Source of the DNA: Chloroflexota bacterium
GTDB lineage: Bacteria; Chloroflexota; Limnocylindria; Limnocylindrales; CSP1-4
Assembly (NCBI GenBank): GCA_012026785.1
Contig: VEOW01000064.1
Coordinates: 1,365 to 65,364 of the forward strand
Direction: 5' to 3'
DNA length: 64,000 bases
The position numbers and the translations under genes were made by a program. Each line of letters starts with the position of its first letter. The first letter of the stretch is position 1. Below the pieces are notes generated by a model, which saw nothing but the letters and a program-made list of their open reading frames with translations, ran no database searches and was not told the origin of the DNA. Shown here piece after piece: positions 1 through 57,113 of the stretch.

Positions 1-349
1 GGATTCCGGGAGGGATACTCTCGGCAATCGCGTGGAGCGATCCGTCGCGGACCACCGTCCGAACGAGTGGGTTCCGTAGGAGGGCCGCCGCCGCCGCCGC
101 CGTGCCACGGAACTCGAACCCGTTGAGCGCGTGCTGGTAGAGCCGGCCCATAGAGCCGCCCGCGGCGCGCGCGGCTTCGCGGCCGTGGTCGGCAGCGCGC
201 GCGCCGGGCTCGAGCGTGACGATCCAGTCGGCCTTCACCGGGGCCTCTCTTGGGCGGGCGAGAGCCGGCGAGATCAGCCCGGAGACGATGAGCAGGAGCA
301 GGGCGCCAACAACGGAGGTCTTCGCCCGGCGGTGTCGCTGGCTCCGCAT
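1..349 (-). CDS. Secreted subtilisin-like (S8) serine protease, N-terminal part only (signal peptide + inhibitor-I9-type propeptide). The gene runs off the 5' edge of the window.
   Basis: Not in the supplied ORF track because it is edge-truncated. My translation of the minus strand from the ATG at 349 is MRSQRHRRAKTSVVGALLLLIVSGLISPALARPREAPVKADWIVTLEPGARAADHGREAARAAGGSMGRLYQHALNGFEFRGTAAAAAALLRNPLVRTVVRDGSLHAIAESIPPGI. It has a basic n-region, hydrophobic core and A-L-A site. The following WIVTL...GG.....Y.HALNGF.F......A..L...P.V..V..D pattern is typical of I9 propeptides preceding S8 domains. GGAGG lies 4 nt upstream of the ATG. Confidence 0.6.
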   Translation of the reverse strand, partial: MRSQRHRRAKTSVVGALLLLIVSGLISPALARPREAPVKADWIVTLEPGARAADHGREAARAAGGSMGRLYQHALNGFEFRGTAAAAAALLRNPLVRTVVRDGSLHAIAESIPPGI

Positions 350-2269: not shown

Positions 2270-3509
2270 CGGGGCCTTTGCGGAATGCCTGATCGAAGAC
2301 GGCGAGGTACTCAGCCGCCACGTGCTCCCAGGTGCGTTTCTCGACGATTGCCTGCGACCTGGCTGCGGCCATGGCCCACTCCTCAGGCGCGTCGAGGATG
2401 CTCGCGATCTTCGCGGCGATATCGTCGGGGCTGCGAGGGTCAAAGAGCATGGCCTCAACGCCCTGCTCGGTCAGGTGCTCACGGAACGCCGGAATGTCGG
2501 ACATGGCCACCGGAGTCCCAAGACTCCAGGCATCGAGACCGGGTCCATTCCCGGCTTCGTAGAGCGAGGGGTTCACGGCGACAGCGGCGCCGGCAATCAG
2601 CGCATCGATCTCCCTGTTGGTGACATACCCGAGACCGACCACGTCCGGGTCATCACCGGAGCGCGTCGACCCGATCGGCGTCGCTCGCCCAGTCGCCGCC
2701 TCGGTCCCGACTCCCGTGATCACCAGCTTGAGACCCGGATATCGCCGACCCAGGATCGCATGGGCTGCGATGAGCGGCCCGAGGTTCTTGTGGACCGTCA
2801 AGTGGGTCGGGCAGATGATGTAACGACCGAAGGTTCGCGTGTTCGAACTCGCGTCGATCTCCGACGTGGCCGCTGCAAACGGCGCGAGCCGCACGACCTG
2901 AACTGGCCGCCGGCCCGGATAGTGGGCAGCGATCTCCGCGGCCATGAAGTCACTCGATGCCACGGCGGTGGCCGCGCGAATCCAGCCGTCGATCTGCGCA
3001 TCGAGCTCGAGGGCATCGGCGTGCGAGAAGACAGGCGTCCCGAAGAAGTAGCGGTAGTTCAAGTCGTGAACCGTCGTCACCATCGGGCGGGAGAGCCTGG
3101 GTGCACGAAGCCAGTACGGCCAGGAGAAGTAGGCGATGTCGCAGGCGGCGGTCGCTGTCTGCAGCTCCTGGGTCATCCTTCGCTGCGTCGCGCTCGCGAG
3201 GTCCCAGTTCCGGGGATCGATCCGCCGCCGGAACCTGAACCCGAGCCGTGATCGAAGCGGGCGAGACTTCCACGGGATGTTCGGCGCCCACTCGAGCGGT
3301 CTGACGTCGATCCCTGCCGCGGCCAGCTCCCCGCGAATGCCCTCGCGTGCGATGCTCAGCGGATTGCCGACGAACCGAATCGACATGTCGGGCCGGACTT
3401 CGCGCATCGCGGGAAGGAGGCGCCGCACGAATCGCGAGCCTCCGCCGGGATTCCCCATCGGATCGAGCACCACCAGGCGCCGAACCCGTCCAGCGTCCGA
3501 GACCGTCAT
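2262..3509 (-). CDS. Glycosyltransferase, GT4 (GT-B fold) family
   Basis: 415 aa. The C-terminal nucleotide-sugar binding half is LVITGVG...VGLGYVTNREIDALIAGAAVAVNPSLYEAGNGPGLDAWSLGTPVAMSDIPAFREH. The start overlaps the upstream stop by 4 nt. Confidence 0.8.
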   Translation of the reverse strand: MTVSDAGRVRRLVVLDPMGNPGGGSRFVRRLLPAMREVRPDMSIRFVGNPLSIAREGIRGELAAAGIDVRPLEWAPNIPWKSRPLRSRLGFRFRRRIDPRNWDLASATQRRMTQELQTATAACDIAYFSWPYWLRAPRLSRPMVTTVHDLNYRYFFGTPVFSHADALELDAQIDGWIRAATAVASSDFMAAEIAAHYPGRRPVQVVRLAPFAAATSEIDASSNTRTFGRYIICPTHLTVHKNLGPLIAAHAILGRRYPGLKLVITGVGTEAATGRATPIGSTRSGDDPDVVGLGYVTNREIDALIAGAAVAVNPSLYEAGNGPGLDAWSLGTPVAMSDIPAFREHLTEQGVEAMLFDPRSPDDIAAKIASILDAPEEWAMAAARSQAIVEKRTWEHVAAEYLAVFDQAFRKGPDG

Positions 3510-4426
3510 GGCACCTCCACGAGACGGGCCCCACTAATCAACTCCTGCTCTTCTTGCTGCGACAGGACGACCGGCCGTCCCCCACGGAGCATGGTTTCCT
3601 TGAAGGGACCCGCGACAAACCCTTCCTCCACGGACAGCGCGGGCATCCAATCTGGCCGGAGATCGGCTCGCACGAGGAAGGCATTGTTGCCGAAGCTGTT
3701 GCAGCCCACGAAGTCCATGCCCTTCCTGTTCGCGACCCCAACAATCGCGGCCAACGACGCTCCAGTGCAGAGCCAAGAGGTGTCGTGGCGTCGCCTGACG
3801 AACGCGGGGTCGTACGGGATCGTGACGGACCTCGCGGGGCCGAATCGGTGGTTGTATTCGACGACCGCGATCGCGGGCCGGACGGCGGTGATGGCCTCGA
3901 ACACCCAGTAGTCGTTGCCGTCGATGTCGACGCTGAGGAGACCCAGGTCGCCCGTGAACCCGTTGTCGGCCAGGAGTCGGTCGATGTTCTCGCGCGTCAC
4001 GAAGGCATTCACGGCGGTCAGGTCGTGGTTCCAGTAGACAGGATCGGCTCGGATCGCCGAGATGTTGTCTTCGTTCCCGTCCATCACCAGACCGCGCCAG
4101 CCCTCGCGCTGGAGGAGGAATCGCGTGTTCGCCTCTCGGTAGTCCTCGACCCCGAATTCGACGAACGTTCGGCTCGGGATGTCGATCGAATGGACCAGGA
4201 ACTGGATGATGCCGTCCTCGCCGGCGTGCGAGTACACCCGGAACTCGTGATCCCGCAGTGAGCCTCGTGTGCCCCGAAGCTGGCGTGCCTCGATTCGCCC
4301 GACCGCCTCGATCACGTTGTCGAGGCGGTCCTTCACCCGGTCGAGCTCATCGAGCTTCGGCAGCCGATCGAGCGCCCGTAGACGCTCGCGGAGGCGGCGA
4401 ACCCGCCCAGGTACCAGGCGTCGCAT
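3506..4426 (-). CDS. Hypothetical protein: N-terminal coiled-coil segment plus a methyltransferase-like domain. Possibly a glycan chain-termination or modification factor coupled to Wzt.
   Basis: Track ORF 3506..4822 trimmed to the ATG at 4426 (MRRLVPGRVRRLRERLRALDRLPKLDELDRVKDRLDNVIEAVGRIEARQL...). That ATG shares one base with the wzt stop (TGATG). The region upstream of it in the ORF is R/P-rich out-of-frame wzt sequence. Body motifs: HAGEDGIIQFL, FVEFGVEDYREANTRFL, LLSVDIDGNDYW. The function call is weak. Confidence 0.55.
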   Translation of the reverse strand: MRRLVPGRVRRLRERLRALDRLPKLDELDRVKDRLDNVIEAVGRIEARQLRGTRGSLRDHEFRVYSHAGEDGIIQFLVHSIDIPSRTFVEFGVEDYREANTRFLLQREGWRGLVMDGNEDNISAIRADPVYWNHDLTAVNAFVTRENIDRLLADNGFTGDLGLLSVDIDGNDYWVFEAITAVRPAIAVVEYNHRFGPARSVTIPYDPAFVRRRHDTSWLCTGASLAAIVGVANRKGMDFVGCNSFGNNAFLVRADLRPDWMPALSVEEGFVAGPFKETMLRGGRPVVLSQQEEQELISGARLVEVP

Positions 4427-5589
4427 CACCGGCCGGCCCCCACCTCGACGTTCGCGCCGGCCATCTCGTCGCGCTGCTCGAAGCGGTGGCGTGGCACCAC
4501 GAGGCTGTCGAGGCGATGATCGCCCGCGATCCGGAGCTCGGTTCGGATCGAGTCCAGGATCAACGGAGCGAGAGGATCGAGACCTACCAGGCGCAGCCAG
4601 AGCGAGTATCGGCCTGGGGCGAGCGCCATGTCGTCGATCGAGATCAGGAAGCGGTTGATGCCGGGGCGCAGGACGAGCCGTGTCCCGCTGAGGTCGCTCC
4701 GCAGGTGGATCACAGGTCGCCCGTCTGCCGACTCGATCAACAGGTTGAGAACGACCTCGAGTTCTCCGTTGCCTGGCTTGTGATCGACCTCGGTTTCGAC
4801 TCGGAGTGGCCCGTTTGACCACTCCACGGTCGGAGCGTCTCGCGTCTCTCCGTCAAGATGAACGCTCATCGCCCTCGACGCGGCGCCATCGCTCCCCGGC
4901 GCCGTATTCGCGATCGCCGCTCTATACCGTGCGATGGCATTCTCGACCCCGCCGTCGAACTCGAGCCGGCCGTTCGCCATGACGAGACCGCGGGTGCACA
5001 GATCGGCGACGGCGAGCAGGTTGTGGCTCACGAACAGGACGGTGGTCCCGTCGCTGGTCAGCCGGTGCATGAGCGATAGGCACTTGGCCTGAAACGGCAG
5101 GTCGCCGACCGCCAGGACCTCGTCAACGATCAGGATCGCGGGTCGGAGATGAGCAGCGACGGCGAAGCCGAGGCGCGCGAACATGCCGCTGGAGTAGCGC
5201 TTGACCGGCATGTCGATGAGCGACTCGATCTCGGAGAACGCGACGATCTCGTCAAACCGGTCGGCGACGTCTCGCTTCGACAGGCCGAGAATCGCTCCGC
5301 TGAGGAACGTGTTCTCGCGGCCCGTCAGTTCGGGATGGAAGCCCGTCCCGACCTCCAGCAAGGCTCCGACTCGGCCGTAGACGTCGGCGTATCCGGCTGA
5401 CGGCCGGGTCACCCGCGACAGGATCCGGAGCAGGGTGCTCTTGCCCGCCCCGTTGCGCCCGATGAGACCGACGGCCTCGCCGGCCTCCATCTCGAACGAC
5501 ACGTCGCTGACGGCGTCGATCCAGGGCGTCTCCCGGGTGGGGCCGCGGTATCGCTTGGACAACCCGACCGCGGCGATGGTCGTGGCCAT
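4426..5589 (-). CDS. wzt: Polysaccharide ABC exporter, ATP-binding subunit (Wzt/TagH type) with a C-terminal extension
   Basis: Walker A is GLIGRNGAGKSTLL, the signature is YSSGMFARLGFA, and Walker B is ILIVDEVLAVGD. An extra domain of roughly 140 aa follows the NBD, as in the glycan-terminus-recognising Wzt proteins. It is adjacent to the ABC-2 permease. Confidence 0.9.
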   Translation of the reverse strand: MATTIAAVGLSKRYRGPTRETPWIDAVSDVSFEMEAGEAVGLIGRNGAGKSTLLRILSRVTRPSAGYADVYGRVGALLEVGTGFHPELTGRENTFLSGAILGLSKRDVADRFDEIVAFSEIESLIDMPVKRYSSGMFARLGFAVAAHLRPAILIVDEVLAVGDLPFQAKCLSLMHRLTSDGTTVLFVSHNLLAVADLCTRGLVMANGRLEFDGGVENAIARYRAAIANTAPGSDGAASRAMSVHLDGETRDAPTVEWSNGPLRVETEVDHKPGNGELEVVLNLLIESADGRPVIHLRSDLSGTRLVLRPGINRFLISIDDMALAPGRYSLWLRLVGLDPLAPLILDSIRTELRIAGDHRLDSLVVPRHRFEQRDEMAGANVEVGAGR

Positions 5590-49641: not shown

Positions 49642-51744
49642 TCAGGCGTCGCGAACCGCCGGGAACAACAGCCCGGCGAGGCCGGCCGCGACCGTCACCA
49701 GGCCGAAGACCCCGATGACGGGGGCCGCCCCGAACCACTCGCCGAGGACGCCGCCGACGCCCATGGCCAGGGTCATCGAGCCGAACACGACCGAGAACCG
49801 CAGGCCCAGGACTCGACCCATGAGCTCCTGCGGGGTTCGACGCTGGAAGAGCGTCTGGCTGGGGATCACGAAGGCCAGGTTGCCAACGCCGGTCCCGAAG
49901 GCCAGGCCGATGGCGAGGTACAGGTTGCCCGTCAGCGCCAGGCCGGCGACGAGGGCCCCGGTGGTCGCGTAGCCGACGATGACCAGGCGGCCCAGGGGCA
50001 GGCGCGACCCGACGAGGCCGATCAGGAAGCCGCCGACCAGGTTGCCGGCCCCGATCGAGCCCTCGAGGAACGAGTAGACGGTCGTGTCGTCGAAGCCCAG
50101 GCCGTCGATCGAGTCGCGGGCGTAGACGGGGGTCAGGGCCAGGAAGATGCCGAGCATGAACTGGCCGGCCGTGGCCTGGAGGGTGTTGGCGAGCAGGACC
50201 CCGTCGCCGCGCAGGAACTGCCAGCCGTCACGGAGCTCCGTGCCGAATCTCGCCAACGCGGCGCGGGCGCCCGCCAGAGCCGACGTCGCCGCCTCCTTGC
50301 CGGCCTCCAGGCTGGCCTGACCGAGGCGCGCCATCGGGGCCACCGACATCGAGGCGAGGAGCAGCGCCGAGCCGATGTAGGTCACCGAATCGACCCAGAA
50401 GGCCAGCGGCAGCTGGCTGCCCAGCAGGGCCACGAACAGGCCGGCGATGACGTAGCCGCCGATGTCGGCGAACGTCTCGCCGATCCAGAGGGCCGAGTTC
50501 GCGGCCACCAGGTCGTCCGAGGCGACCATCCGCGGGACGATCGCGCCCTTGGCCGGCCGGAAGAAGATCGAGATGGTGGTGAGCAGGAAGACGAGCGGAT
50601 AGACGAGGACGAGGTTGGTCACCGCGGCGATCGGGATGAGGAGGACGACCCCCGCGCGGAGCAGGTCGCTGACGATCATCACCTCGCGGTGGTCCCAGCG
50701 ATCGACGAGCGTCCCCGCGATCGGGCCGACGAGGAGGTTCGGCAGGGTCGCGACGAGGAACACCGCGCCGACGGCGATCGGGGAGTTGGTGGCGTTGAGG
50801 ACGAGGAATGCCAGGGCGACCTGGTGGATCCGATCGCCGACGAGGCTGATGAGCTGGCCGAACCACAGGGCCGAGAACGACGAGTCGAGGGCGAGCCGGA
50901 CGTACGGGTGGCGCCGGACGCGTTCGAGGATCGGGGGGACGCCGGGGATGGCGACGGTTCGGGGGGCCGGCAGGGAGCCCTCGGCACGGAGTGAGGCGCC
51001 GCCGAGAACGAGCGGCCGCTCGAGGGCCGCGGCCCGGACCAGCGCCGTGTCGGCACTCGGGTCGCTGAGTGCGCCAGCTTCCGCGCCCGCCTCCGCGCCG
51101 GCCCCGGCGAGCGCCGGCTCGAGGGGAGTGCCGATGGTCGCGACGCGCCGTCGGATCGCCTCCTTCGTCGCCTCATCGAGCTCGGTCTGGTGTCGAACGG
51201 TAACCGCGAACAGGAAGAACGCCAGGCCGGCCGCCAGGAACAGGTCGCCGATGCTGGCGACGTTGCGCAGGAACGGGATCGGGATCGGGATGATGTCGCC
51301 GAGCGGGCCGGCGAGGGCCAGGAAGTCGCCCGAGATGCCGCCTTCCGCGGCCAACCCGACGATTCGATGGAAGGGCGTCGCGAAGACCTCGTTGCCGAGC
51401 CCCGCCGCCTCGATGCTGGGCGCCCAGACCGGCATCGCGCCGCCGTTGGTGACCACCGCGACGGCGTTCATCAGGATGCCCACGAAGGCCAGCGGAAGGC
51501 CGGGCTGCTCGCGGTTCACCCACAGCCCGATGAGCAGCAGTGCGAAGCCACTGGCGAAGAGCGGCAGGCGCAATGCCTCGGCCGGGTCGATGCCGGCCTC
51601 GATCGCGACTTGGGTGGCGAATCGGAGGATGAGGCCCAGGAACAGCAGCTGGACGAGCCGCAGCCGCACGCTGGCGAGGTTGTCGAGGCGGCCCCCGGCG
51701 AGCAGGCCCAGCACGAGGCCTGCGGCGAGGCTCAGGATCAGCAC
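49642..51744 (-). CDS. Fusion protein: N-terminal DUF5317-like membrane module + C-terminal MFS transporter (EntS/MFS_3-like)
   Basis: 700 aa. Residues 1 to ~190 are MLILSLAAGLVLGLLAGGRLDNLASVRLRLVQLLFLGLILRF...GDIIPIPIPFLRNVASIGDLFLAAGLAFFLF, which follows the DUF5317 pattern as I recall it. An Ala/Gly/Glu-rich linker comes next. The 12-TM MFS part starts at WFGQLISLVGDRIHQVALAFLVL...TLVDRWDHREVMIVSDLLRAG. Confidence 0.75.
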   Translation of the reverse strand: MLILSLAAGLVLGLLAGGRLDNLASVRLRLVQLLFLGLILRFATQVAIEAGIDPAEALRLPLFASGFALLLIGLWVNREQPGLPLAFVGILMNAVAVVTNGGAMPVWAPSIEAAGLGNEVFATPFHRIVGLAAEGGISGDFLALAGPLGDIIPIPIPFLRNVASIGDLFLAAGLAFFLFAVTVRHQTELDEATKEAIRRRVATIGTPLEPALAGAGAEAGAEAGALSDPSADTALVRAAALERPLVLGGASLRAEGSLPAPRTVAIPGVPPILERVRRHPYVRLALDSSFSALWFGQLISLVGDRIHQVALAFLVLNATNSPIAVGAVFLVATLPNLLVGPIAGTLVDRWDHREVMIVSDLLRAGVVLLIPIAAVTNLVLVYPLVFLLTTISIFFRPAKGAIVPRMVASDDLVAANSALWIGETFADIGGYVIAGLFVALLGSQLPLAFWVDSVTYIGSALLLASMSVAPMARLGQASLEAGKEAATSALAGARAALARFGTELRDGWQFLRGDGVLLANTLQATAGQFMLGIFLALTPVYARDSIDGLGFDDTTVYSFLEGSIGAGNLVGGFLIGLVGSRLPLGRLVIVGYATTGALVAGLALTGNLYLAIGLAFGTGVGNLAFVIPSQTLFQRRTPQELMGRVLGLRFSVVFGSMTLAMGVGGVLGEWFGAAPVIGVFGLVTVAAGLAGLLFPAVRDA

Positions 51745-51843: not shown

Positions 51844-53247
51844 TCAGGCGAGATCCGCCGCGGGCGACCCGGGTGCCGGGGCGTCGAAGTGGTGGGCGGC
51901 TCGGTCGGCCGCCAGCTGTCCCAGCGTCGGGATCGGCCGAAGCTCGGGCCGGCCGGGGTCTCGAACGTCCTCCGCCCAGCGGGTCCTGACGAAGGCGTCG
52001 ACGACCTCGGGGGCGAACTGGACGCCGGCGAACTTCCGCAGCTCGGCGAGGGCCTGCTCGGTCGACAGGGCCTTGCGGTACGGCCGGTCGGCGGTCATCG
52101 CCTCGAAGGCGTCGGCGACGTGGAGGATCCGGGCGAGCTTCGGGATCTCGTCGCCCATCAGCCGGTCGGGATAGCCCGAGCCGTTGTACCACTCGTGGTG
52201 ATGCCGGATGACGGGCAGCTCGGGCGCCAGCCGATCGACGGGCCCGATGATCTGGGCCCCGAGCACGGGGTGGGCGTTCATCGTGATCCGCTCCTCGCGG
52301 GTCAGCTTGCCCTGCTTCAGCAGAACGCTGTCGGGGACCCCGATCTTGCCGACGTCGTGAAGCAGGCCGCCCCATTCGAGGGCCTCCAGCTCCGCGGCGC
52401 TCACCCGCATCACCCGACCAATGTCGACGGCGATCGTCCGCACGCGCTGGCTGTGCTTGCTGGTGTACGGGTCCCGCTTGTCGACGGCCTCGGCCAGGGC
52501 GCCGATGGTCTGGGTGAACATCTCGCGCATCTCGACGAACCGCTGGTACGCCACCCGCGTCGTAAACAGCGGCAGCCCGAACAGCAAGGTCGTCCACCAG
52601 CCGCCCCCTGGGATTTCGTACAGGCGCGCCATTAGCCACCCTAGGGGCGCCAGAGTCAGGAAGTTTGCCCAAATGTTCGCGGTTTCGGCACGGGCCAGAA
52701 ACTCTCGCGGGGAGCGGCCTTGCCGGATCAGAACGATCAGCGACACGAGGACGAGGTTGAATAGGAAGTAGAGCAGAGTGGCGGCGAGTGTCGCCAGAAA
52801 TTCCCAAAATAGCCCTTCGCCTAGACCGCGCACTCCGACAAGCACCATTCCCGCCAGGGTGACCGGGAGCACGATGGCGGCATGGTTCGCGAGCGTCCCG
52901 TACCAAGCTACTCGCCCGCGAAGTTCGCGGGTATCGGTTGTCCCGAGGAGTGCGACCCATGCCCCGGCCGTCGGTCCACCTAAGACCGTCGCGGCCATCA
53001 GCGGGGCAGTGGAAACGGCCACTTGAACGCCATCGGTAAGGCGGACCGGCAAGGCCGATGCGATCAGCGTCACCAAGGTCCAAAAGCCAAGCCCGGCGAG
53101 CACCTCTATCGGCGATACCTCGCCATGGACGCCGTCGAGTTCGATGGCGATGGTGTGCTCAACAGGAATCACAAGGCTCGTGGCCAGCAGCGCCAAGGCT
53201 GCTGCTCCCACGAGCCATGCGATGTATATCGCCAGGGATCGAGTCAA
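51844..53247 (-). CDS. Polytopic-membrane HD-GYP domain protein (c-di-GMP phosphodiesterase family)
   Basis: 467 aa with a TTG start and AAGGAG 12 nt upstream. There are about 7 TM segments in the first ~230 aa. The HD-GYP domain follows: DPYTSKHSQRV, LLHDVGKIGVPD, HHEWYNGSGYPD, ADAFEAMTADRPYR. Confidence 0.85.
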   Translation of the reverse strand: MTRSLAIYIAWLVGAAALALLATSLVIPVEHTIAIELDGVHGEVSPIEVLAGLGFWTLVTLIASALPVRLTDGVQVAVSTAPLMAATVLGGPTAGAWVALLGTTDTRELRGRVAWYGTLANHAAIVLPVTLAGMVLVGVRGLGEGLFWEFLATLAATLLYFLFNLVLVSLIVLIRQGRSPREFLARAETANIWANFLTLAPLGWLMARLYEIPGGGWWTTLLFGLPLFTTRVAYQRFVEMREMFTQTIGALAEAVDKRDPYTSKHSQRVRTIAVDIGRVMRVSAAELEALEWGGLLHDVGKIGVPDSVLLKQGKLTREERITMNAHPVLGAQIIGPVDRLAPELPVIRHHHEWYNGSGYPDRLMGDEIPKLARILHVADAFEAMTADRPYRKALSTEQALAELRKFAGVQFAPEVVDAFVRTRWAEDVRDPGRPELRPIPTLGQLAADRAAHHFDAPAPGSPAADLA

Positions 53248-53322
53248 CTCGCCTCTGTACTCCTTGGACCTACGTCCCGAACTCTAAGACCTAACGTCCG
53301 GGCCCTAAATGGTCCATGCGTA

Positions 53323-53418
53323 CTAGAAGCCCTTTAGAGTCGCTCCTCCGGCGAGGGCGGTCGCGGCGATGGCACTCAGGGTGATGGCCAGCCGCATCAG
53401 TCGGAGCTTCATGATCAT
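53323..53418 (-). CDS. Micro-ORF A (31 codons): Sec-type signal peptide followed by an 8-residue tail; candidate exported peptide or leader peptide
   Basis: Own translation, below the ORF-track cut-off: MIMKLRLMRLAITLSAIAATALAGGATLKGF-TAG. There is an in-frame TAA immediately upstream. It ends with the same TLKGF-TAG as micro-ORF B, with only synonymous differences. Confidence 0.4.
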   Translation of the reverse strand: MIMKLRLMRLAITLSAIAATALAGGATLKGF

Positions 53419-53426
53419 TTACCTGA

Positions 53427-53459
53427 CTAGAAGCCCTTGAGGGTCTGTTCCGGCTTCAC
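53427..53459 (-). CDS. Micro-ORF B (10 codons, GTG start) ending TLKGF
   Basis: The sequence reads AGGAGGA-cgagc-GTG AAG CCG GAA CAG ACC CTC AAG GGC TTC TAG. Its stop lies 8 nt before the micro-ORF A ATG. It is very short, so the coding status is speculative. Confidence 0.25.
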   Translation of the reverse strand: MKPEQTLKGF

Positions 53460-53496
53460 GCTCGTCCTCCTCGCGGTTTCCGCGTTCCACCCTGGA

Positions 53497-53526
53497 AACA
53501 CGAAAACCGACCAGACACTTGGTCGG
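53497..53526 (-). terminator. Intrinsic terminator candidate downstream of the STAND regulator / at the end of a structured leader
   Basis: On the minus strand: CCGACCA-AGUGUC-UGGUCGG (7-bp stem, 6-nt loop) followed by UUUUCGUGUUU. Confidence 0.55.
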
Positions 53527-53637
53527 TCGGTTGCACTACTCGCTCGATCCCACCCTAAGTGCCCATTTCAGGTGGGATTTCGGCGCGTCCGAGCGTTATT
53601 GAGATGACGCTCTCTTAGTACCGGAGTACTAGACAGC
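53527..53637 (-). ncRNA. Candidate structured leader RNA or small RNA between a promoter-like element and the terminator (class not recognised)
   Basis: Three perfect hairpins, read directly in plus-strand coordinates: 53617-53630 (AGTAC/GTACT), 53591-53612 (GAGCGT/ACGCTC) and 53547-53578 (ATCCCACC/GGTGGGAT, 16-nt loop). The region is AT-richer and contains no credible ORF. Confidence 0.35.
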
Positions 53638-53643
53638 GGCGGG

Positions 53644-53673
53644 ACTATAGGTATCCCGCTCCACCCCGGTCAA
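53644..53673 (-). promoter_or_regulatory. Sigma-70-like promoter candidate TTGACC-n18-TATAGT
   Basis: On the minus strand the -35 TTGACC (53673-53668) overlaps the regulator stop codon, and the -10 TATAGT is at 53649-53644. Read directly. Confidence 0.45.
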
Positions 53674-56600
53674 TACGCATGTCTACCTAATTGGCCCGCC
53701 TCGTTGAATGGCGTTGGTTCGACACCGAGCTCCTTCATCGAGCGGGCGTAGTGTGCGTAGGCCTCCGCGGCGGCAGCGTGCGCGCCCGAGTACCGGTACA
53801 GGCGGACAAGGGAAAGCTGGATTTCCTCGGAGTCTGGATCCACTTCGGCAGCGCGCTCCGCGAGGAACGTGCCGCGCTCCCACTGACCAGAGTCGATGTC
53901 CGCTCGAATGGCCCGCTCAACCGTCCGGAGGAAGCCTGCATGCAGCGCGTCTCGGAAGGGCTGCGCCCATTCGTCGTAGATGAAGTCCAGGGCAAATCGC
54001 CCCGAGTATTCCTTCGCTAGACGAACCGCGACATCGGGCTCCGGTGTCCCGGTTGTCTGGCGAACCAGCCCCAGGCACCGCTGGCTTCGTGCGTCAATCA
54101 ACTCGTCGTCGAGCCAAATCGTCTCCCCGTCCTGTTGGACGTATCCGGGTGATGTGTCGTCTCGGTAGTCGGGCTCGAACACCCGGCGAAGGAAGTACAC
54201 GGTCTGGTTCAGCGAATTCAGGGCGGACGCAGGATCCTGGTCCGGCCAGAGGCTATCGAGGACCTCATCTCTCGAGCAGGCAAACTCGACTTTCGTGAGC
54301 AGAAGACAAAGAAGGGCCAGGACCTTCCGCCGCACGCCCCCACCTTCAACTGTGCGCTCGCCAATCTGGATCCGGACGCGACCCAGATCCTCCACGGAGA
54401 CCCGCGGCGCGAGTCGACGAGCGAGCGAGCGACCAAGAGCGGCAGCTCGCGGATCGCGAAGAGACCGGGCCGCATCACGGAGTCGAGGAACGTCCTCGGG
54501 CTCACCAATCTGCTCGAGGAGCTGTCCGGCTGCCAGTCTCGTGGAGGCTGAAACCGAGCGCAGTTGAGCACGGGCAGCGGTTCGCCACCGTGGCGGAAGT
54601 CGGTGCGCCTCAGCCTCGATCACTCGCTGGGCCTCGACGCTGACCTCCGGCAATCGTCGCGCGACCACTTCCGCCCCCATTGTTAGAACCCTCGGGTTCT
54701 CTCCGGCGAGCCTCAGGATCACTTGGGACAAGTCGCCTTTGCCATGGGCGGAAGCTTCAAGAAGGCGCCCGTATCGCTCCCACAGGCGAGCCCCTTGGTG
54801 CGCCGCCAGGTCGATCGCCCGCGCAGCACCATGTCCTGCCGCAGGATCATCCTTCAAGCAGGCCAGCAGAACCTGGGCGAGCTGACGGCGCAGTTCGAAC
54901 GCGGGCGTCGTGCGCAGGGCGTTGCCGGGTAGCTTTCCGAGCGATTCGCCGGCCTCGTCGAGTCTCCCGATTTGAGCAAGTGCTACCGCACTGGCCAGAT
55001 GGGCCTTGTCCCTTTCATTCCGATCCTTTTCGATACGGCCGTCAACGCGGAGGAGGTGTGCTAGAGCGCGGTCGACGTCGCCGAAGAACTCCTCGATTTC
55101 CGCCGCTTCGACGGCGACTTCAACCGCTTGCCCGGCAGGTGCCGCCTCGATGGCGCGCTCTATTTCCAGCCGAGCTTCCTCGATGGTGCCCAGTTGGGCA
55201 AGTGACGCGGCGCGGGCCAGGCGTGACGACACGAGCTCGACACCTTGCGAACTCCGATTCAGTAGCTCGATTGAGTCCTCGGCCGCTTTCAGGGCGGCGG
55301 ACGCCTCTCCCATCGGGAGGAGCACTTGGGCGAGGTTGCAATACGTGACCCCTAGGAAGTGCGTTTCGGGACGGCCGCTGGCTCTGGCCGCGGTCCGCTC
55401 GAGCGCTTCAGCTGCGGTGGGCAGCAGGCCATCCGTCGACACCTCGAGACACAGCCGATAGGTTCGGGCGATCTCCGCCAATCGAGGCGGGGCGTACTCC
55501 TCAAGACGCCGACAAGCCTCGAGGGCACCGGCGGTGTCGCCTGCCAGATTCCGTGCCGACACGAGGTTGAGAAGCGCGGCCGTGTCGCCGGGGTCGGCGT
55601 GGATGGCGCGTTCGGCGAGATCGAGGCCCTCGACGGTGTTGGCGCGCTGCTGGGCAAGACGCGAGCGGATGACGAGGCCCGGGGCGCCGGGCAGCTCGCC
55701 GCCCGGAAGGCCACTCGCCAGCGACTGCGCGGCGGCGTACGCGCCAGTCGCGAGGATCGACTCGACCGCCCCGGTGAGGACGCGGCCGGCGCTCGTGGGG
55801 TCGCCAGCCGCGAGGTAGTGGCGGGCGGCGGTCTGCCAGTCGATCGCCTCGGCCGCGGCGGCAATTCGATGGTGGATGACTCGAACCTGGGCGTCGCCGA
55901 TCGAGCGCGCAAGGCGCGCCTGGAGAAAGTCTCGAACGAGCGGGTGGGCCCGGGCCACGTGGCGGGTGTTCGGGCCGCCCTTGCCGAGCAGCCCCAGACG
56001 CTCGCCATCGTCGATCCATCGAGCGGCTTCGGCCTCCGGAATGTCCGCCGCGACCGTGCCAAGCGGCAGATCGATGGTTTCGAGCAGGGAGGTCCGCATG
56101 AGGAACGCCTGCAGGTCGGGTTCGAGATCCCCGATGACCTCCTCGGCGAGATAGTCGTAGAGGTGCCCCTCGGCCCCGCTCAGCGACGAGATGAAGGCCC
56201 GGATCTGGGCCGGATCCCGGTCGTGGAGCGCGGATCGGACGAGCTGCAGCGAGGCGGCCCAGCCCTCTGTCCGCCGGGTGAGCTCGGCGACGAGCCCCGG
56301 TTCGAGACGCATCTCGTACGTCTCCCGGAACAGCCGCTCCGTCTCCTCGGCATCGAACCGGAGATCGTCGGTGCCGAGCTGGGCGACCTCCCCGAGCGCT
56401 CGAAGACGGGCCAGACGGAGGGGTGGTTCGCGGCGGCTGGCGAACACGAACGCGAGCCGCTCGGGTCCGCGGGCCAGCAGCTCCCGCACGACGTCCCGGA
56501 CGTCCGGAGAGTCGTCGACCAGGTGGAAGTCGTCGAAAACGAACGCGCTCGCGTCCGGCGGCAGCTGGCCGAGTTCGCGGAGGAAGGTATCGACGACCAT

Positions 56601-57113
56601 CTCGCGCGGCGGAGCGGCGGTCGCCGTCTCGCGGATCAGCGAGCCGGTCGCCTCGCCGAAGCCCGGGTGGTGGAGCCGGATGGCGGCCACGAGATAGGCC
56701 AGGAACCCAACCCAGTCGCGATCGCCCCGGTCGAGGCGGTACCAGAAGACGCGGACGCGGCTGCGGCGTGTGAAGTCGGCAAGGAGGGTTGTCTTGCCGT
56801 AGCCAGCCTCGGCGATGACCAGCACAGCCCGGCGGTGGATCTTGACCGACAGCCATTCCAGCAACCGATCGCGGGCCAGCGTCTCGTCCCGCAGCGGCGG
56901 CGCCTGGACCTGCGTGATCTGGACCGGATACTCGGACATGCCTCCGAGGAGCCCTCCGGTGGTCGCGTGGCTGGGCGTGGCCGGCGCCGAACCGGTGGGG
57001 ACGAGGGTCATGTGGGCGCTGCGGGGCGGCTCGGGCGGCGCGAACGATAGGGACGGGGCGCGAAGCGTATCAACGGCGAGGGCGGCCCGACGGTGCTGGG
57101 GCATGCCGGGCAT
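53670..57113 (-). CDS. Large STAND (MalT-like P-loop NTPase) + TPR/helical-repeat regulator with a C-terminal SARP-type wHTH + BTAD DNA-binding output
   Basis: 1147 aa. P-loop: VLVIAEAGYGKTTLLADF; Walker B-like FVFDDFHLV; MalT-like TEGWAASLQLV. A helical-repeat region of roughly 450 aa follows. The C-terminal wHTH is RRKVLALLCLLLTKVEFACSRDEVLDSLWPDQDPASALNSLNQTVYFLRRVF. The BTAD is YSGRFALDFIYDEWAQPFRDALHAGFL...DPDSEEIQLSLVRLYRYSGAHAAAAEAYAHYARSMKELGVEPTP. The start is uncertain (57113, 57011 or 56939). Confidence 0.85.
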   Translation of the reverse strand: MPGMPQHRRAALAVDTLRAPSLSFAPPEPPRSAHMTLVPTGSAPATPSHATTGGLLGGMSEYPVQITQVQAPPLRDETLARDRLLEWLSVKIHRRAVLVIAEAGYGKTTLLADFTRRSRVRVFWYRLDRGDRDWVGFLAYLVAAIRLHHPGFGEATGSLIRETATAAPPREMVVDTFLRELGQLPPDASAFVFDDFHLVDDSPDVRDVVRELLARGPERLAFVFASRREPPLRLARLRALGEVAQLGTDDLRFDAEETERLFRETYEMRLEPGLVAELTRRTEGWAASLQLVRSALHDRDPAQIRAFISSLSGAEGHLYDYLAEEVIGDLEPDLQAFLMRTSLLETIDLPLGTVAADIPEAEAARWIDDGERLGLLGKGGPNTRHVARAHPLVRDFLQARLARSIGDAQVRVIHHRIAAAAEAIDWQTAARHYLAAGDPTSAGRVLTGAVESILATGAYAAAQSLASGLPGGELPGAPGLVIRSRLAQQRANTVEGLDLAERAIHADPGDTAALLNLVSARNLAGDTAGALEACRRLEEYAPPRLAEIARTYRLCLEVSTDGLLPTAAEALERTAARASGRPETHFLGVTYCNLAQVLLPMGEASAALKAAEDSIELLNRSSQGVELVSSRLARAASLAQLGTIEEARLEIERAIEAAPAGQAVEVAVEAAEIEEFFGDVDRALAHLLRVDGRIEKDRNERDKAHLASAVALAQIGRLDEAGESLGKLPGNALRTTPAFELRRQLAQVLLACLKDDPAAGHGAARAIDLAAHQGARLWERYGRLLEASAHGKGDLSQVILRLAGENPRVLTMGAEVVARRLPEVSVEAQRVIEAEAHRLPPRWRTAARAQLRSVSASTRLAAGQLLEQIGEPEDVPRLRDAARSLRDPRAAALGRSLARRLAPRVSVEDLGRVRIQIGERTVEGGGVRRKVLALLCLLLTKVEFACSRDEVLDSLWPDQDPASALNSLNQTVYFLRRVFEPDYRDDTSPGYVQQDGETIWLDDELIDARSQRCLGLVRQTTGTPEPDVAVRLAKEYSGRFALDFIYDEWAQPFRDALHAGFLRTVERAIRADIDSGQWERGTFLAERAAEVDPDSEEIQLSLVRLYRYSGAHAAAAEAYAHYARSMKELGVEPTPFNEAGQLGRHAY

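Follow-up and report, generated by a model that had tools for sequence, protein, structure and literature searches.

The 64,000-nucleotide (nt) stretch of DNA examined here, called the window below, comes from a Chloroflexota bacterium of the class Limnocylindria (assembly GCA_012026785.1, contig VEOW01000064.1, positions 1,365 to 65,364) and carries on its minus strand a cassette in which the transcript order is promoter, 5' hairpin, cyclic di-GMP (c-di-GMP)-II riboswitch with its terminator, two very short open reading frames (ORFs) termed ORF-B and ORF-A, a MASE9-HD-GYP phosphodiesterase gene and a gene fusing DUF5317 to a major facilitator superfamily (MFS) exporter (Table 1). An earlier sequence-only reading of the window had singled out the two micro-ORFs, which end in the same TLKGF-stop, and direct reading of the minus strand returned the same ORFs, the same 8-nt gap between them (TCAGGTAA), the same Shine-Dalgarno (SD) spacing and, over the final five codons, only the same two differences (ACC/ACT and CTC/CTA), both synonymous. 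In the whole 64 kb, the 12-mer AAGGGCTTCTAG is found at two places only, the two ORF ends, against a chance expectation of 0.03, and none of 100 shuffles gave two or more matches. The comparative evidence presented below confirms, at the level of sequence, that both micro-ORFs are conserved protein-coding genes.

With the downstream HD-GYP protein as query, we obtained 80 related loci at 57-80% identity, almost all of them from metagenome-assembled genomes (MAGs) that carry the label Chloroflexota or Candidatus Limnocylindria; 77 of the 80 retain sequence upstream of the HD-GYP gene, which together with the window makes 78. Like the window, every one of the 77 has ORF-A, its stop codon lying 64-105 nt ahead of the HD-GYP start in the related loci, and ORF-B is present in 74/78. 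The entropy at codon positions 1, 2 and 3 of ORF-A is 0.91, 0.58 and 1.61 bits, respectively, and in the related-loci alignment A19, A21, G22, G23 and A24 never vary as residues, yet their codons are saturated at the third position, a combination that indicates protein-level purifying selection; as read from this alignment, such selection is acting on all 29 ORF-A codons. Protein-level constraint, which had been put forward on the strength of the two synonymous differences in the window, was thus borne out for ORF-A and also for ORF-B, whose residues are kept amid synonymous variation, and the C-terminus recurs in relatives. When metagenomes were scanned, without regard to context, for a degenerate DNA pattern of the last nine ORF-A codons, 120 loci were added, all with both micro-ORFs, so that the cassette is now known from about 200 related Limnocylindria (Chloroflexota) loci altogether. 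Among the metagenome loci with enough downstream sequence, the HD-GYP gene begins at +72 to +100 in 105/107, and a riboswitch core was found in 92/93 where the sequence extends far enough upstream. The same cassette also occurs in MAGs labelled Dormibacterota, Patescibacteria, Sulfomarinibacteraceae and Verrucomicrobiia (L002, L005, L014 and L024; 64-80% protein identity), the contigs of which are probably mis-binned or mislabelled.

The reading frame and stop codon first proposed for ORF-A stand, while its start does not: because 72 homologous sequences start exactly 29 codons before the stop, we assign the start in the window to the second ATG (53412), so that the product has 29 rather than 31 residues. 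This 29-residue ORF is a called but unnamed gene in Joint Genome Institute (JGI)/Logan data. The design described for its product, namely a basic n-region, a hydrophobic core, an A-x-A site and an eight-residue tail, is conserved through the 166 distinct homologues that we compiled: A19 is found in 152/166 and A21 in 165/166, K2, R4 and R7 are kept, residues 8-18 form a hydrophobic region of variable sequence, and the eight residues after A-x-A are nearly invariant. Judged by rule from its sequence, ORF-A has the make-up of a Sec (signal peptidase I) signal peptide (basic n-region, h-region of 7-15 residues, small residues at -3 and -1). Searches of Pfam and NCBIfam with ORF-A gave no family, and a search of 1.8 billion representative proteins gave 12 matches, all of them the same small ORF. 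A prepilin-peptidase site at K-G|F was considered and set aside, the hydrophobic segment lying on the wrong side of such a site. In L070 and L080, where the STAND gene that lies upstream of the cassette in the window is partial or absent, the ORF-A tail is degenerate (RVI/RVF); in L054 and L077 an ORF-A-like sequence is kept before the HD-GYP gene (garbled in L054), with the riboswitch and ORF-B replaced by unrelated sequence, and the STAND gene of L077 consists of the N-terminal half only.

ORF-B is 10 codons long in 62 loci and is preceded by GGAGG (within positions -16 to -4) in 66/68. Across 139 distinct sequences, K8 and an aromatic last residue (W, F or Y) are found in 139/139, P3 in 83% and E or D at position 4 in 78%, third positions being free; the gap to ORF-A ranges from 2 to 32 nt across loci. 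The last residue of both ORFs is F, W or Y save for one Ile, and terminal Ser, Leu and Cys, the codons of which likewise start with U, never occur in either ORF. When a nine-codon ORF-B product is stripped of its initiator residue (APESVKGW), it aligns with the eight residues after the ORF-A A-x-A (GGASLRGF). Hence, ORF-B looks like a leaderless copy, 9-10 residues long, of the ORF-A tail, and in the genomes compared it is confined to Limnocylindria. The tail unit has been tandemly expanded within ORF-B (SVTKGF x3, ITKGW x3, TTKPW x2, SAKGW x2), with at least four independent origins. Two or three tandem units are seen in L042, L051, L092, L114, L122 and L192 (e.g., MEISSVTKGFSSVTKGFSSVTKGF), and in L013 and L094 the ORF-B stop is lost and the product ends in KGFER. 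That the two ORFs arose by chance, or are a non-coding RNA or DNA repeat, is an explanation to which we give practically no credence: the repeat does take in the stop codon plus one more base, and initially there were two synonymous differences only, but codon periodicity is evident and the frame is kept in about 200 loci, Rfam returned no family for the window region besides the c-di-GMP-II riboswitch, and RNAalifold found no structure over ORF-B. The chance alternative that had been left standing earlier is thereby refuted.

The two tails also change together. In the window's clade, which comprises 24 genomes for this comparison, the last five residues of ORF-A and ORF-B are identical in 17 genomes, whereas re-pairing the tails among the same genomes (10,000 permutations) gave a mean of 2.9 identical pairs and a maximum of 9. 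On the HD-GYP protein tree there are at least 10 independent paired tail changes (L to I/V/A, F to W/Y, G to P, and S to T or T to S), and the correspondence extends beyond the window's clade, where, among distinct pairs, I at position -4 of ORF-A goes with I at -4 of ORF-B in 7/8, and T at -5 with T at -5 in 8/10. Gene conversion as the source of identical tails is ruled out: when the tails are compared at third positions, identity reaches 0.62 inside genomes vs. 0.64 between genomes, Ser is encoded by AGC in ORF-B vs. TCN in ORF-A, and the S/T change requires different mutations in the two ORFs. Since the tails co-vary at the amino-acid level through different codons, the pattern points to one shared partner that reads both. 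The diversification is pherotype-like and in this respect supports the pheromone design suggested in the sequence-only reading.

Table 1. Features of the cassette in the window and micro-ORFs of the second lineage (positions refer to the window or, where a locus is named, to that locus)
Feature	Position	Strand	Details
DUF5317 + DHA3/Mef/EntS-type MFS exporter fusion	49642..51744	-	700 aa; Pfam DUF5317, MFS_3, MFS_1; NCBIfam 2A0121 H+ antiporter 3.7e-58
MASE9-HD-GYP c-di-GMP phosphodiesterase	51844..53247	-	467 aa, TTG start; Pfam HD_5 2.4e-41, MASE9 6.7e-05
Structured spacer (predicted)	53251..53330	-	outer helix GCUUCU 53330..53325 (Gly28, Phe29, U of UAG) with AGAGGC 53256..53251 (HD-GYP SD)
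ORF-A, first reading	53323..53418	-	ATG 53418 to TAG 53325-53323; 31 codons, encodes MIMKLRLMRLAITLSAIAATALAGGATLKGF
ORF-A, conserved-start form	ATG 53412	-	29 residues, MKLRLMRLAITLSAIAATALAGGATLKGF; signal-anchor-like micropeptide
ORF-B	53427..53459	-	GTG 53459, 10 codons + TAG 53429-53427, encodes VKPEQTLKGF; leaderless, tail K-G-aromatic
ORF-B Shine-Dalgarno	53465..53472	-	GAGGAGGA; 5 nt upstream of GTG
Post-terminator hairpin	53475..53508	-	GG-UUUU-CGUGUYY...RRCACG-RAGG-CC; RNAalifold, 70 loci: 13 pairs, 7 compensatory
Intrinsic terminator (expression platform)	53501..53528	-	stem 53528..53505, then T-run; 5' arm CCGACC = 3' strand of P1
c-di-GMP-II riboswitch aptamer (RF01786)	53516..53599	-	64.6 bits vs. 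gathering 53.5; E 3.7e-12 over whole window; full model 1-84
5'-proximal hairpin	53611..53634	-	window GUCUAGUAC-UCCG-GUACUAAGAG; family consensus CUUCCUAGUAC-N4-GUACUAGGAAG
Promoter	53644..53673	-	TTGACC-N18-TATAGT; 10/12 matches; sole sigma-70-like site in 53150..53750
DNA motif	53674..53690	-	(G)ATAGGTA-N6-CGTA; adjoins -35 box; kept in nearly all loci
MalT-like STAND ATPase	53670..57113	-	NF003420 3e-58; C-terminal OmpR-type winged helix (Trans_reg_C) + BTAD
L201 micro-ORF	4750..4839	-	MKERLFRLGVALGSVTALAAVLGAGIKWH; directly upstream of MASE9-like GGDEF-EAL; 29 aa, MK.RL.RL
L209 micro-ORF	3684..3770	-	MKVRLFRLSVTAATLGALAAVLGAGWKWH; directly upstream of MASE9-like GGDEF-EAL; 29 aa, MK.RL.RL
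L211 micro-ORF	3237..3326	-	MRARLLRLATAAATIVALAASLGAGVKWR; directly upstream of MASE9-like GGDEF-EAL; 29 aa, MK.RL.RL
L210 micro-ORF	3774..3866	-	MFKLRMFRIAVALSSFAALAASVGADRKWG; directly upstream of MASE9-like GAF-histidine kinase; 30 aa
L212 micro-ORF	96..185	-	MKKYAYRIAALSGSVMAIVMAGGAAFGRR; upstream of HD_5 gene, near DUF5317

The hairpin and T-run previously taken for a terminator after the STAND regulator belong to a c-di-GMP-II riboswitch and overlap the 3' end of its aptamer (53516); the riboswitch, which is predicted to control the cassette, had been absent from that account. The aptamer passes the curated RF01786 score over the full-length model, lies in the 5' leader on the coding strand and has an overlapping expression platform, and of the 20 related loci scanned, 17 have a match that exceeds the gathering score in the same place (58-71 bits); L204 also has one above this score. 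In the ligand-free minimum free energy (MFE) structure the terminator hairpin forms and P1 does not; because the terminator shares an arm with aptamer helix P1, we infer a transcriptional ON switch. A further hairpin takes the U-tract of the terminator, ends just ahead of the ORF-B Shine-Dalgarno and is predicted to form in read-through transcripts only. The c-di-GMP-II class reportedly goes back to a study by Lee et al. in 2010 (cited after PMC12564702 and PMC9495176). Similar to known c-di-GMP-II riboswitches, the present one scores above the curated threshold over the full model and stands upstream of a c-di-GMP turnover gene; different from them, it is spread through a Chloroflexota class and has two peptide genes before the enzyme gene. 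Riboswitches of this class have been linked with c-di-GMP turnover genes (PMC12564702), and the class has been described as mainly found in clostridia and Deinococcus (PMC9495176).

Further upstream, the promoter hexamers are the same in nearly all related loci, and the 5' hairpin, which is likewise conserved, follows directly after the -10 box; in the L057 clade its two arms have changed in a compensatory manner. The conserved DNA motif next to the -35 box may be a regulator site, possibly for the OmpR/BTAD domain of the upstream protein; in the form GATAGGTA-N6-CGTA, with 11 nt from GGTA to CGTA, it is also retained in L080, which is without the STAND gene. Two other candidate links in the leader were rejected: the left arm of the 5' hairpin resembles the ORF-A end (GCUUCUAGUAC) with marginal co-variation (3.44 vs. 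3.21 of 9), and pairing of the aptamer 5' strand CGCUCG with CGAGCG ahead of the ORF-B start had no covariation by inspection.

Alternatively, the micro-ORFs might act purely in cis, as upstream ORFs (uORFs) whose peptides are functionless, with ORF-B loading ribosomes through its strong Shine-Dalgarno and helix melting relaying translation to ORF-A and then to HD-GYP; in a variant, the K/R-G-aromatic-UAG ends would stall termination on a ligand, in the manner of TnaC or MsrDL, and gate downstream translation. Several observations fit such a role. The last four ORF-A codons (AAG GGC TTC TAG) have low third-position entropy, i.e., there is extra constraint at the nucleotide level, and the stop is UAG in 82% of ORF-A and 76-84% of ORF-B sequences vs. 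a background of 31% in 497 long ORFs; more generally, UAG and UAA are favoured and UGA is avoided in the micro-ORFs against a background of 66% TGA. In the window's clade, base pairing is predicted between the 3' end of ORF-A and the HD-GYP ribosome-binding site, which makes the uORF alternative in the sequence-only reading partly right: among 12 clade-I sequences GCUUCU:AGAGGC was the sole consensus pairing, retained by 11-12 of the 12, the duplex of ORF-A tail and HD-GYP SD having a predicted energy of -23.8 kcal/mol in the window, where the helix closes a 75-nt spacer with an MFE of -38.6 kcal/mol (z = -3.0). Further, the ORF-B tail pairs with the ORF-A start in the window, and the gap between the two ORFs is short throughout. 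Translational coupling of ORF-A to HD-GYP is thus plausible in the window's clade. However, about half of the family lacks the SD-masking helix, so coupling cannot account for family-wide conservation, and an RNA-only cause of the shared tail was rejected for the same reason, the pairings holding in part of the family only. Nor did two other comparisons lend it weight: complementarity beside GTAC anchors was weak (5.36 vs. 5.01 of 9, p ~0.02), and duplex energies were -14.7 kcal/mol for cognate vs. -13.4 kcal/mol for non-cognate pairs.

A purely cis-acting role is also difficult to reconcile with the selection on all 29 ORF-A codons, with the persistence of the family before quite different downstream RNA, with internal tandem tail units that have no stop codon after them, and with lineage-specific tail co-variation via different codons, which is unexpected from an invariant ribosome tunnel. 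We therefore judge this explanation to be quite improbable. Known leader peptides such as TnaC and MsrDL are short ORFs upstream of the regulated gene with conserved last residues and stop, the MsrDL operon even having a Mef-type MFS pump; conserved tails and a UAG bias are seen in the micro-ORFs described here, whereas co-varying tails and internal repeats would not be expected for a tunnel-acting motif. A precedent is ppe2 of Mycobacterium tuberculosis, where a B12-riboswitch-controlled uORF is needed for translation of the main gene via termination-reinitiation (Kipkorir et al. 2024, PMC11260477). The cassette likewise has a short translated ORF (as argued here by sequence-level evidence) between aptamer and main gene and, in the window's clade, predicted SD masking; it differs in having two ORFs instead of one, peptide-level selection, co-evolving tails and a c-di-GMP-II transcriptional ON switch, and, unlike the ppe2 uORF, the ORF-A family also occurs without a riboswitch. 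A motif YUAGAGU is conserved in most loci in the middle of the spacer between ORF-A and HD-GYP (UUAGAGU at 53287..53281, minus strand, in the window), and a promoter scan found no internal promoter at TAGAGT.

HHExxDGxGYP-type motifs are visible in the HD-GYP translation, and the longer ORF starting at TTG 53247, as opposed to the 450-aa form beginning 17 codons downstream in public gene calls, is supported because homologues have an ATG aligned with that position. At JGI, many of the MASE9-HD-GYP proteins are named 'riboflavin transporter FmnP' or 'F0F1-type ATP synthase assembly protein I', probably wrongly and because annotation was carried over from the membrane domain. The DUF5317-MFS gene stands after HD-GYP in 77 loci. 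Its DUF5317 part (residues 1-186) was modelled by AlphaFold2 with a pLDDT of 92.9 and a pTM of 0.86, contains an invariant NGG.MP motif and two conserved Asp in xGD motifs, of which D150 is invariant and D167 is shared by at least 90% of sequences, and the model gave no fold match in the PDB (best TM 0.32); DUF5317 may represent a new membrane fold. The idea that the two Asp mark a GxGD-type intramembrane protease was dropped: no PDB fold matched, and a PDB sequence search returned spurious antibody matches.

Upstream, the neighbour read earlier as a STAND-TPR-SARP regulator (TPR, tetratricopeptide repeat) and likened to the regulators of RNPP/Rgg systems is a MalT-like STAND ATPase with Trans_reg_C and BTAD, its TPR matches all falling below Pfam cutoffs; it is not an RNPP/Rgg receptor. 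Its gene is syntenic in 66 loci and the order DnaB-STAND-cassette is broadly conserved; it is absent from L013, L080 and the second-lineage (Acidimicrobiia-type) loci described below, and in L013 (4697..5425) an HNH endonuclease gene stands where it would be. Adjacency to a regulator, which had been counted as a pheromone sign, is thus part of a general gene order, and ORF-A-like peptides occur elsewhere without a STAND gene; we treat the regulator as genomic context of the cassette.

In the main rival explanation, ORF-A would be cleaved by signal peptidase I after A-L-A to release GGA[ST]L[KR]GF, ORF-B would provide a second, MFS-exported form, and the peptides would act between cells as quorum or autocrine signals sensed by MASE9 or, after re-import, by the MalT-like STAND regulator. 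The textbook n-, h- and c-regions, the small residues at -3/-1, the nearly invariant eight-residue tail and its alignment as a predicted mature octapeptide with ORF-B all agree with it, as do the pherotype-like diversification of the two tails, the resemblance of multi-unit ORF-Bs to multi-core precursors and the presence of an exporter gene in the operon; an anecdotal lead is that two lineages without an adjacent STAND gene have a degenerate tail in one peptide (KGFER in L013/L094, RVI/RVF in L070/L080). Against it, a 29-residue chain is complete before its signal peptide emerges from the ribosome, no oligopeptide importer was noticed in the cassette (no search aimed at importers was made), the regulator is not of the RNPP/Rgg kind and its adjacency reflects synteny, and the second-lineage peptides keep the leader motif and change their tails in loci without STAND, whereas the leader of a precursor would be expected to drift. 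Overall, we consider a secreted signal possible but rather unlikely.

Firmicutes pheromone precursors (SHP/Rgg, ComS/ComR, PrgQ-iCF10/PrgX, Phr/Rap) have about 20-45 residues with a basic N-terminus, a hydrophobic core and the active peptide in their last 5-8 residues; precursor and partner diversify jointly into pherotypes, and prgQ lies at the 5' end of a terminator-gated operon. From its sequence, ORF-A would fit this precursor design, with an export-type N-terminus and a candidate active peptide at the C-terminal end. The pheromone-cassette comparison of the sequence-only reading holds in part: the sequence design is conserved and the tails co-evolve, but membership in RNPP fails, as no RNPP/Rgg receptor lies alongside. 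Also distinct from the Firmicutes systems, the cassette was not seen to contain Eep, PptAB or Opp genes (importers were not specifically searched), the host is a member of Chloroflexota, the neighbours are c-di-GMP enzymes, and it is the N-terminal part of the peptide that is better conserved across lineages.

The last point comes from ORF-A-like peptides found outside Limnocylindria together with MASE9 and DUF5317, a link that rests on five loci (Table 1). Standalone distant DUF5317 proteins make up a large family of 1963 matches, one of them labelled Acidimicrobiia, and on the label of this one record the second lineage is probably actinobacterial, of the Acidimicrobiia type. In L201, L209, L210 and L211 the micro-ORF is divergent from a standalone DUF5317 gene (4/4) and the N-terminal membrane domains of the enzymes encoded downstream of the micro-ORFs are homologous to the window's MASE9 (hhalign 95.9%, E 6e-9, 186 columns); in L203, an HD_5 gene lies directly upstream of a DUF5317 gene with 28% identity. 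No c-di-GMP-II riboswitch, ORF-B or STAND regulator was found in the second-lineage loci. The peptides there keep the N-terminal MK.RL.RL and differ in their tails (IKWH, WKWH, VKWR, DRKWG, AFGRR). A hairpin with a T-run follows the micro-ORF in L209 and L210. By these comparisons, ORF-A is a member of an undescribed family of 29-30-residue peptides that accompany MASE9-type sensors in at least two lineages. Their start is basic (MK.RL.R[LI]), they contain a stretch of hydrophobic residues and a cluster of small ones, and their tail is short and basic-aromatic. Since the constant companions of the family are MASE9 and DUF5317, a membrane micropeptide/sensor module is favoured over a diffusible pheromone read by STAND. 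Both are widespread membrane domains for which we know of no ligand or function; MASE9 has been described as a promiscuous sensor domain and proposed to bind a ligand within the membrane (Galperin and Chou, bioRxiv 10.1101/2021.11.05.467447).

Hence, we lean, if only slightly, towards the hypothesis that ORF-A is a signal-anchor micropeptide associated with MASE9/DUF5317 and ORF-B a leaderless copy of its tail, both encoded in a riboswitch-led operon. Under this hypothesis, high c-di-GMP would steady P1 and block the terminator, and the resulting read-through would lead to synthesis of the phosphodiesterase and a drop in c-di-GMP, i.e., a homeostatic loop. ORF-A would insert N-in/C-out beside the MASE9/DUF5317 membrane proteins and show its tail at the outer face, possibly clipped at A-x-A|G and possibly not, while the MFS half of the DUF5317 fusion would export the ORF-B peptide, which could mimic or compete with the ORF-A tail at the MASE9/DUF5317 module and in this way tune c-di-GMP hydrolysis. 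Limnocylindria would have gained the riboswitch, the leaderless tail copy and the MFS exporter fused to DUF5317, and in the window's clade translation of ORF-A may in addition unmask the HD-GYP Shine-Dalgarno paired with its last codons. The ORF-A-like peptides share their general make-up with small sensor partners (fewer than 50 residues, one hydrophobic helix, encoded with a membrane protein). MgrB-PhoQ, SafA-PhoQ, KdpF and AcrZ are examples of such small proteins, all below 50 residues with a single hydrophobic helix and encoded with, or induced by, the system that they modulate; MgrB feeds back on a membrane sensor. ORF-A is likewise co-transcribed with a membrane sensor enzyme and follows MASE9 across output types, although it has no sequence relationship to these proteins (Pfam, NCBIfam) and none of them has a leaderless tail mimic or riboswitch control.

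It is important to note that several findings weigh against this hypothesis. The contiguous A-x-A-G-G-A-S block and the short variable core (11-12 residues) are no less compatible with a cleaved Sec signal than with a transmembrane anchor, and L206, a second-lineage DUF5317/GGDEF-EAL locus, is without a micro-ORF. Export of ORF-B by the MFS protein rests on a single evolutionary co-occurrence. No HD-GYP, MFS or STAND columns track the tail changes, and the search for columns following the F-to-W change in these three proteins gave none that was convincing. With regard to the RNA, the helix between ORF-A tail and HD-GYP SD, in addition to being missing in about half of all loci, is without two-sided compensatory changes, the hairpin of ORF-B tail and ORF-A start forms in only 23/74 loci, and the UAG bias lacks an explanation in the favoured model outside the window's clade.

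In conclusion, our results show that comparative sequence alone allows confident identification of genes with as few as 10 and 29 codons, which normal annotation does not see, and they widen the range of c-di-GMP-II riboswitches by an entire class of Chloroflexota, uncultured bacteria of soil and freshwater. A micropeptide found with MASE9 in HD-GYP, GGDEF-EAL and histidine kinase enzymes alike represents a testable candidate for the partner of this sensor module, and the riboswitch of Limnocylindria together with a second peptide that changes in step constitutes a natural genetic experiment that points to a specific peptide-binding site. A more far-reaching version, of which we are doubtful, is that the riboswitch would place production of both a membrane-presented ORF-A tail and its leaderless copy ORF-B under the control of c-di-GMP, and that the ORF-B peptide, exported by the MFS, would act on MASE9 as an autocrine or quorum signal, with tails and receptor co-diversifying. 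If true, such a c-di-GMP-gated peptide circuit would be the first peptide-signalling system in Chloroflexota and the first riboswitch-controlled pheromone-like gene, and would provide the first proposed ligand for MASE9.

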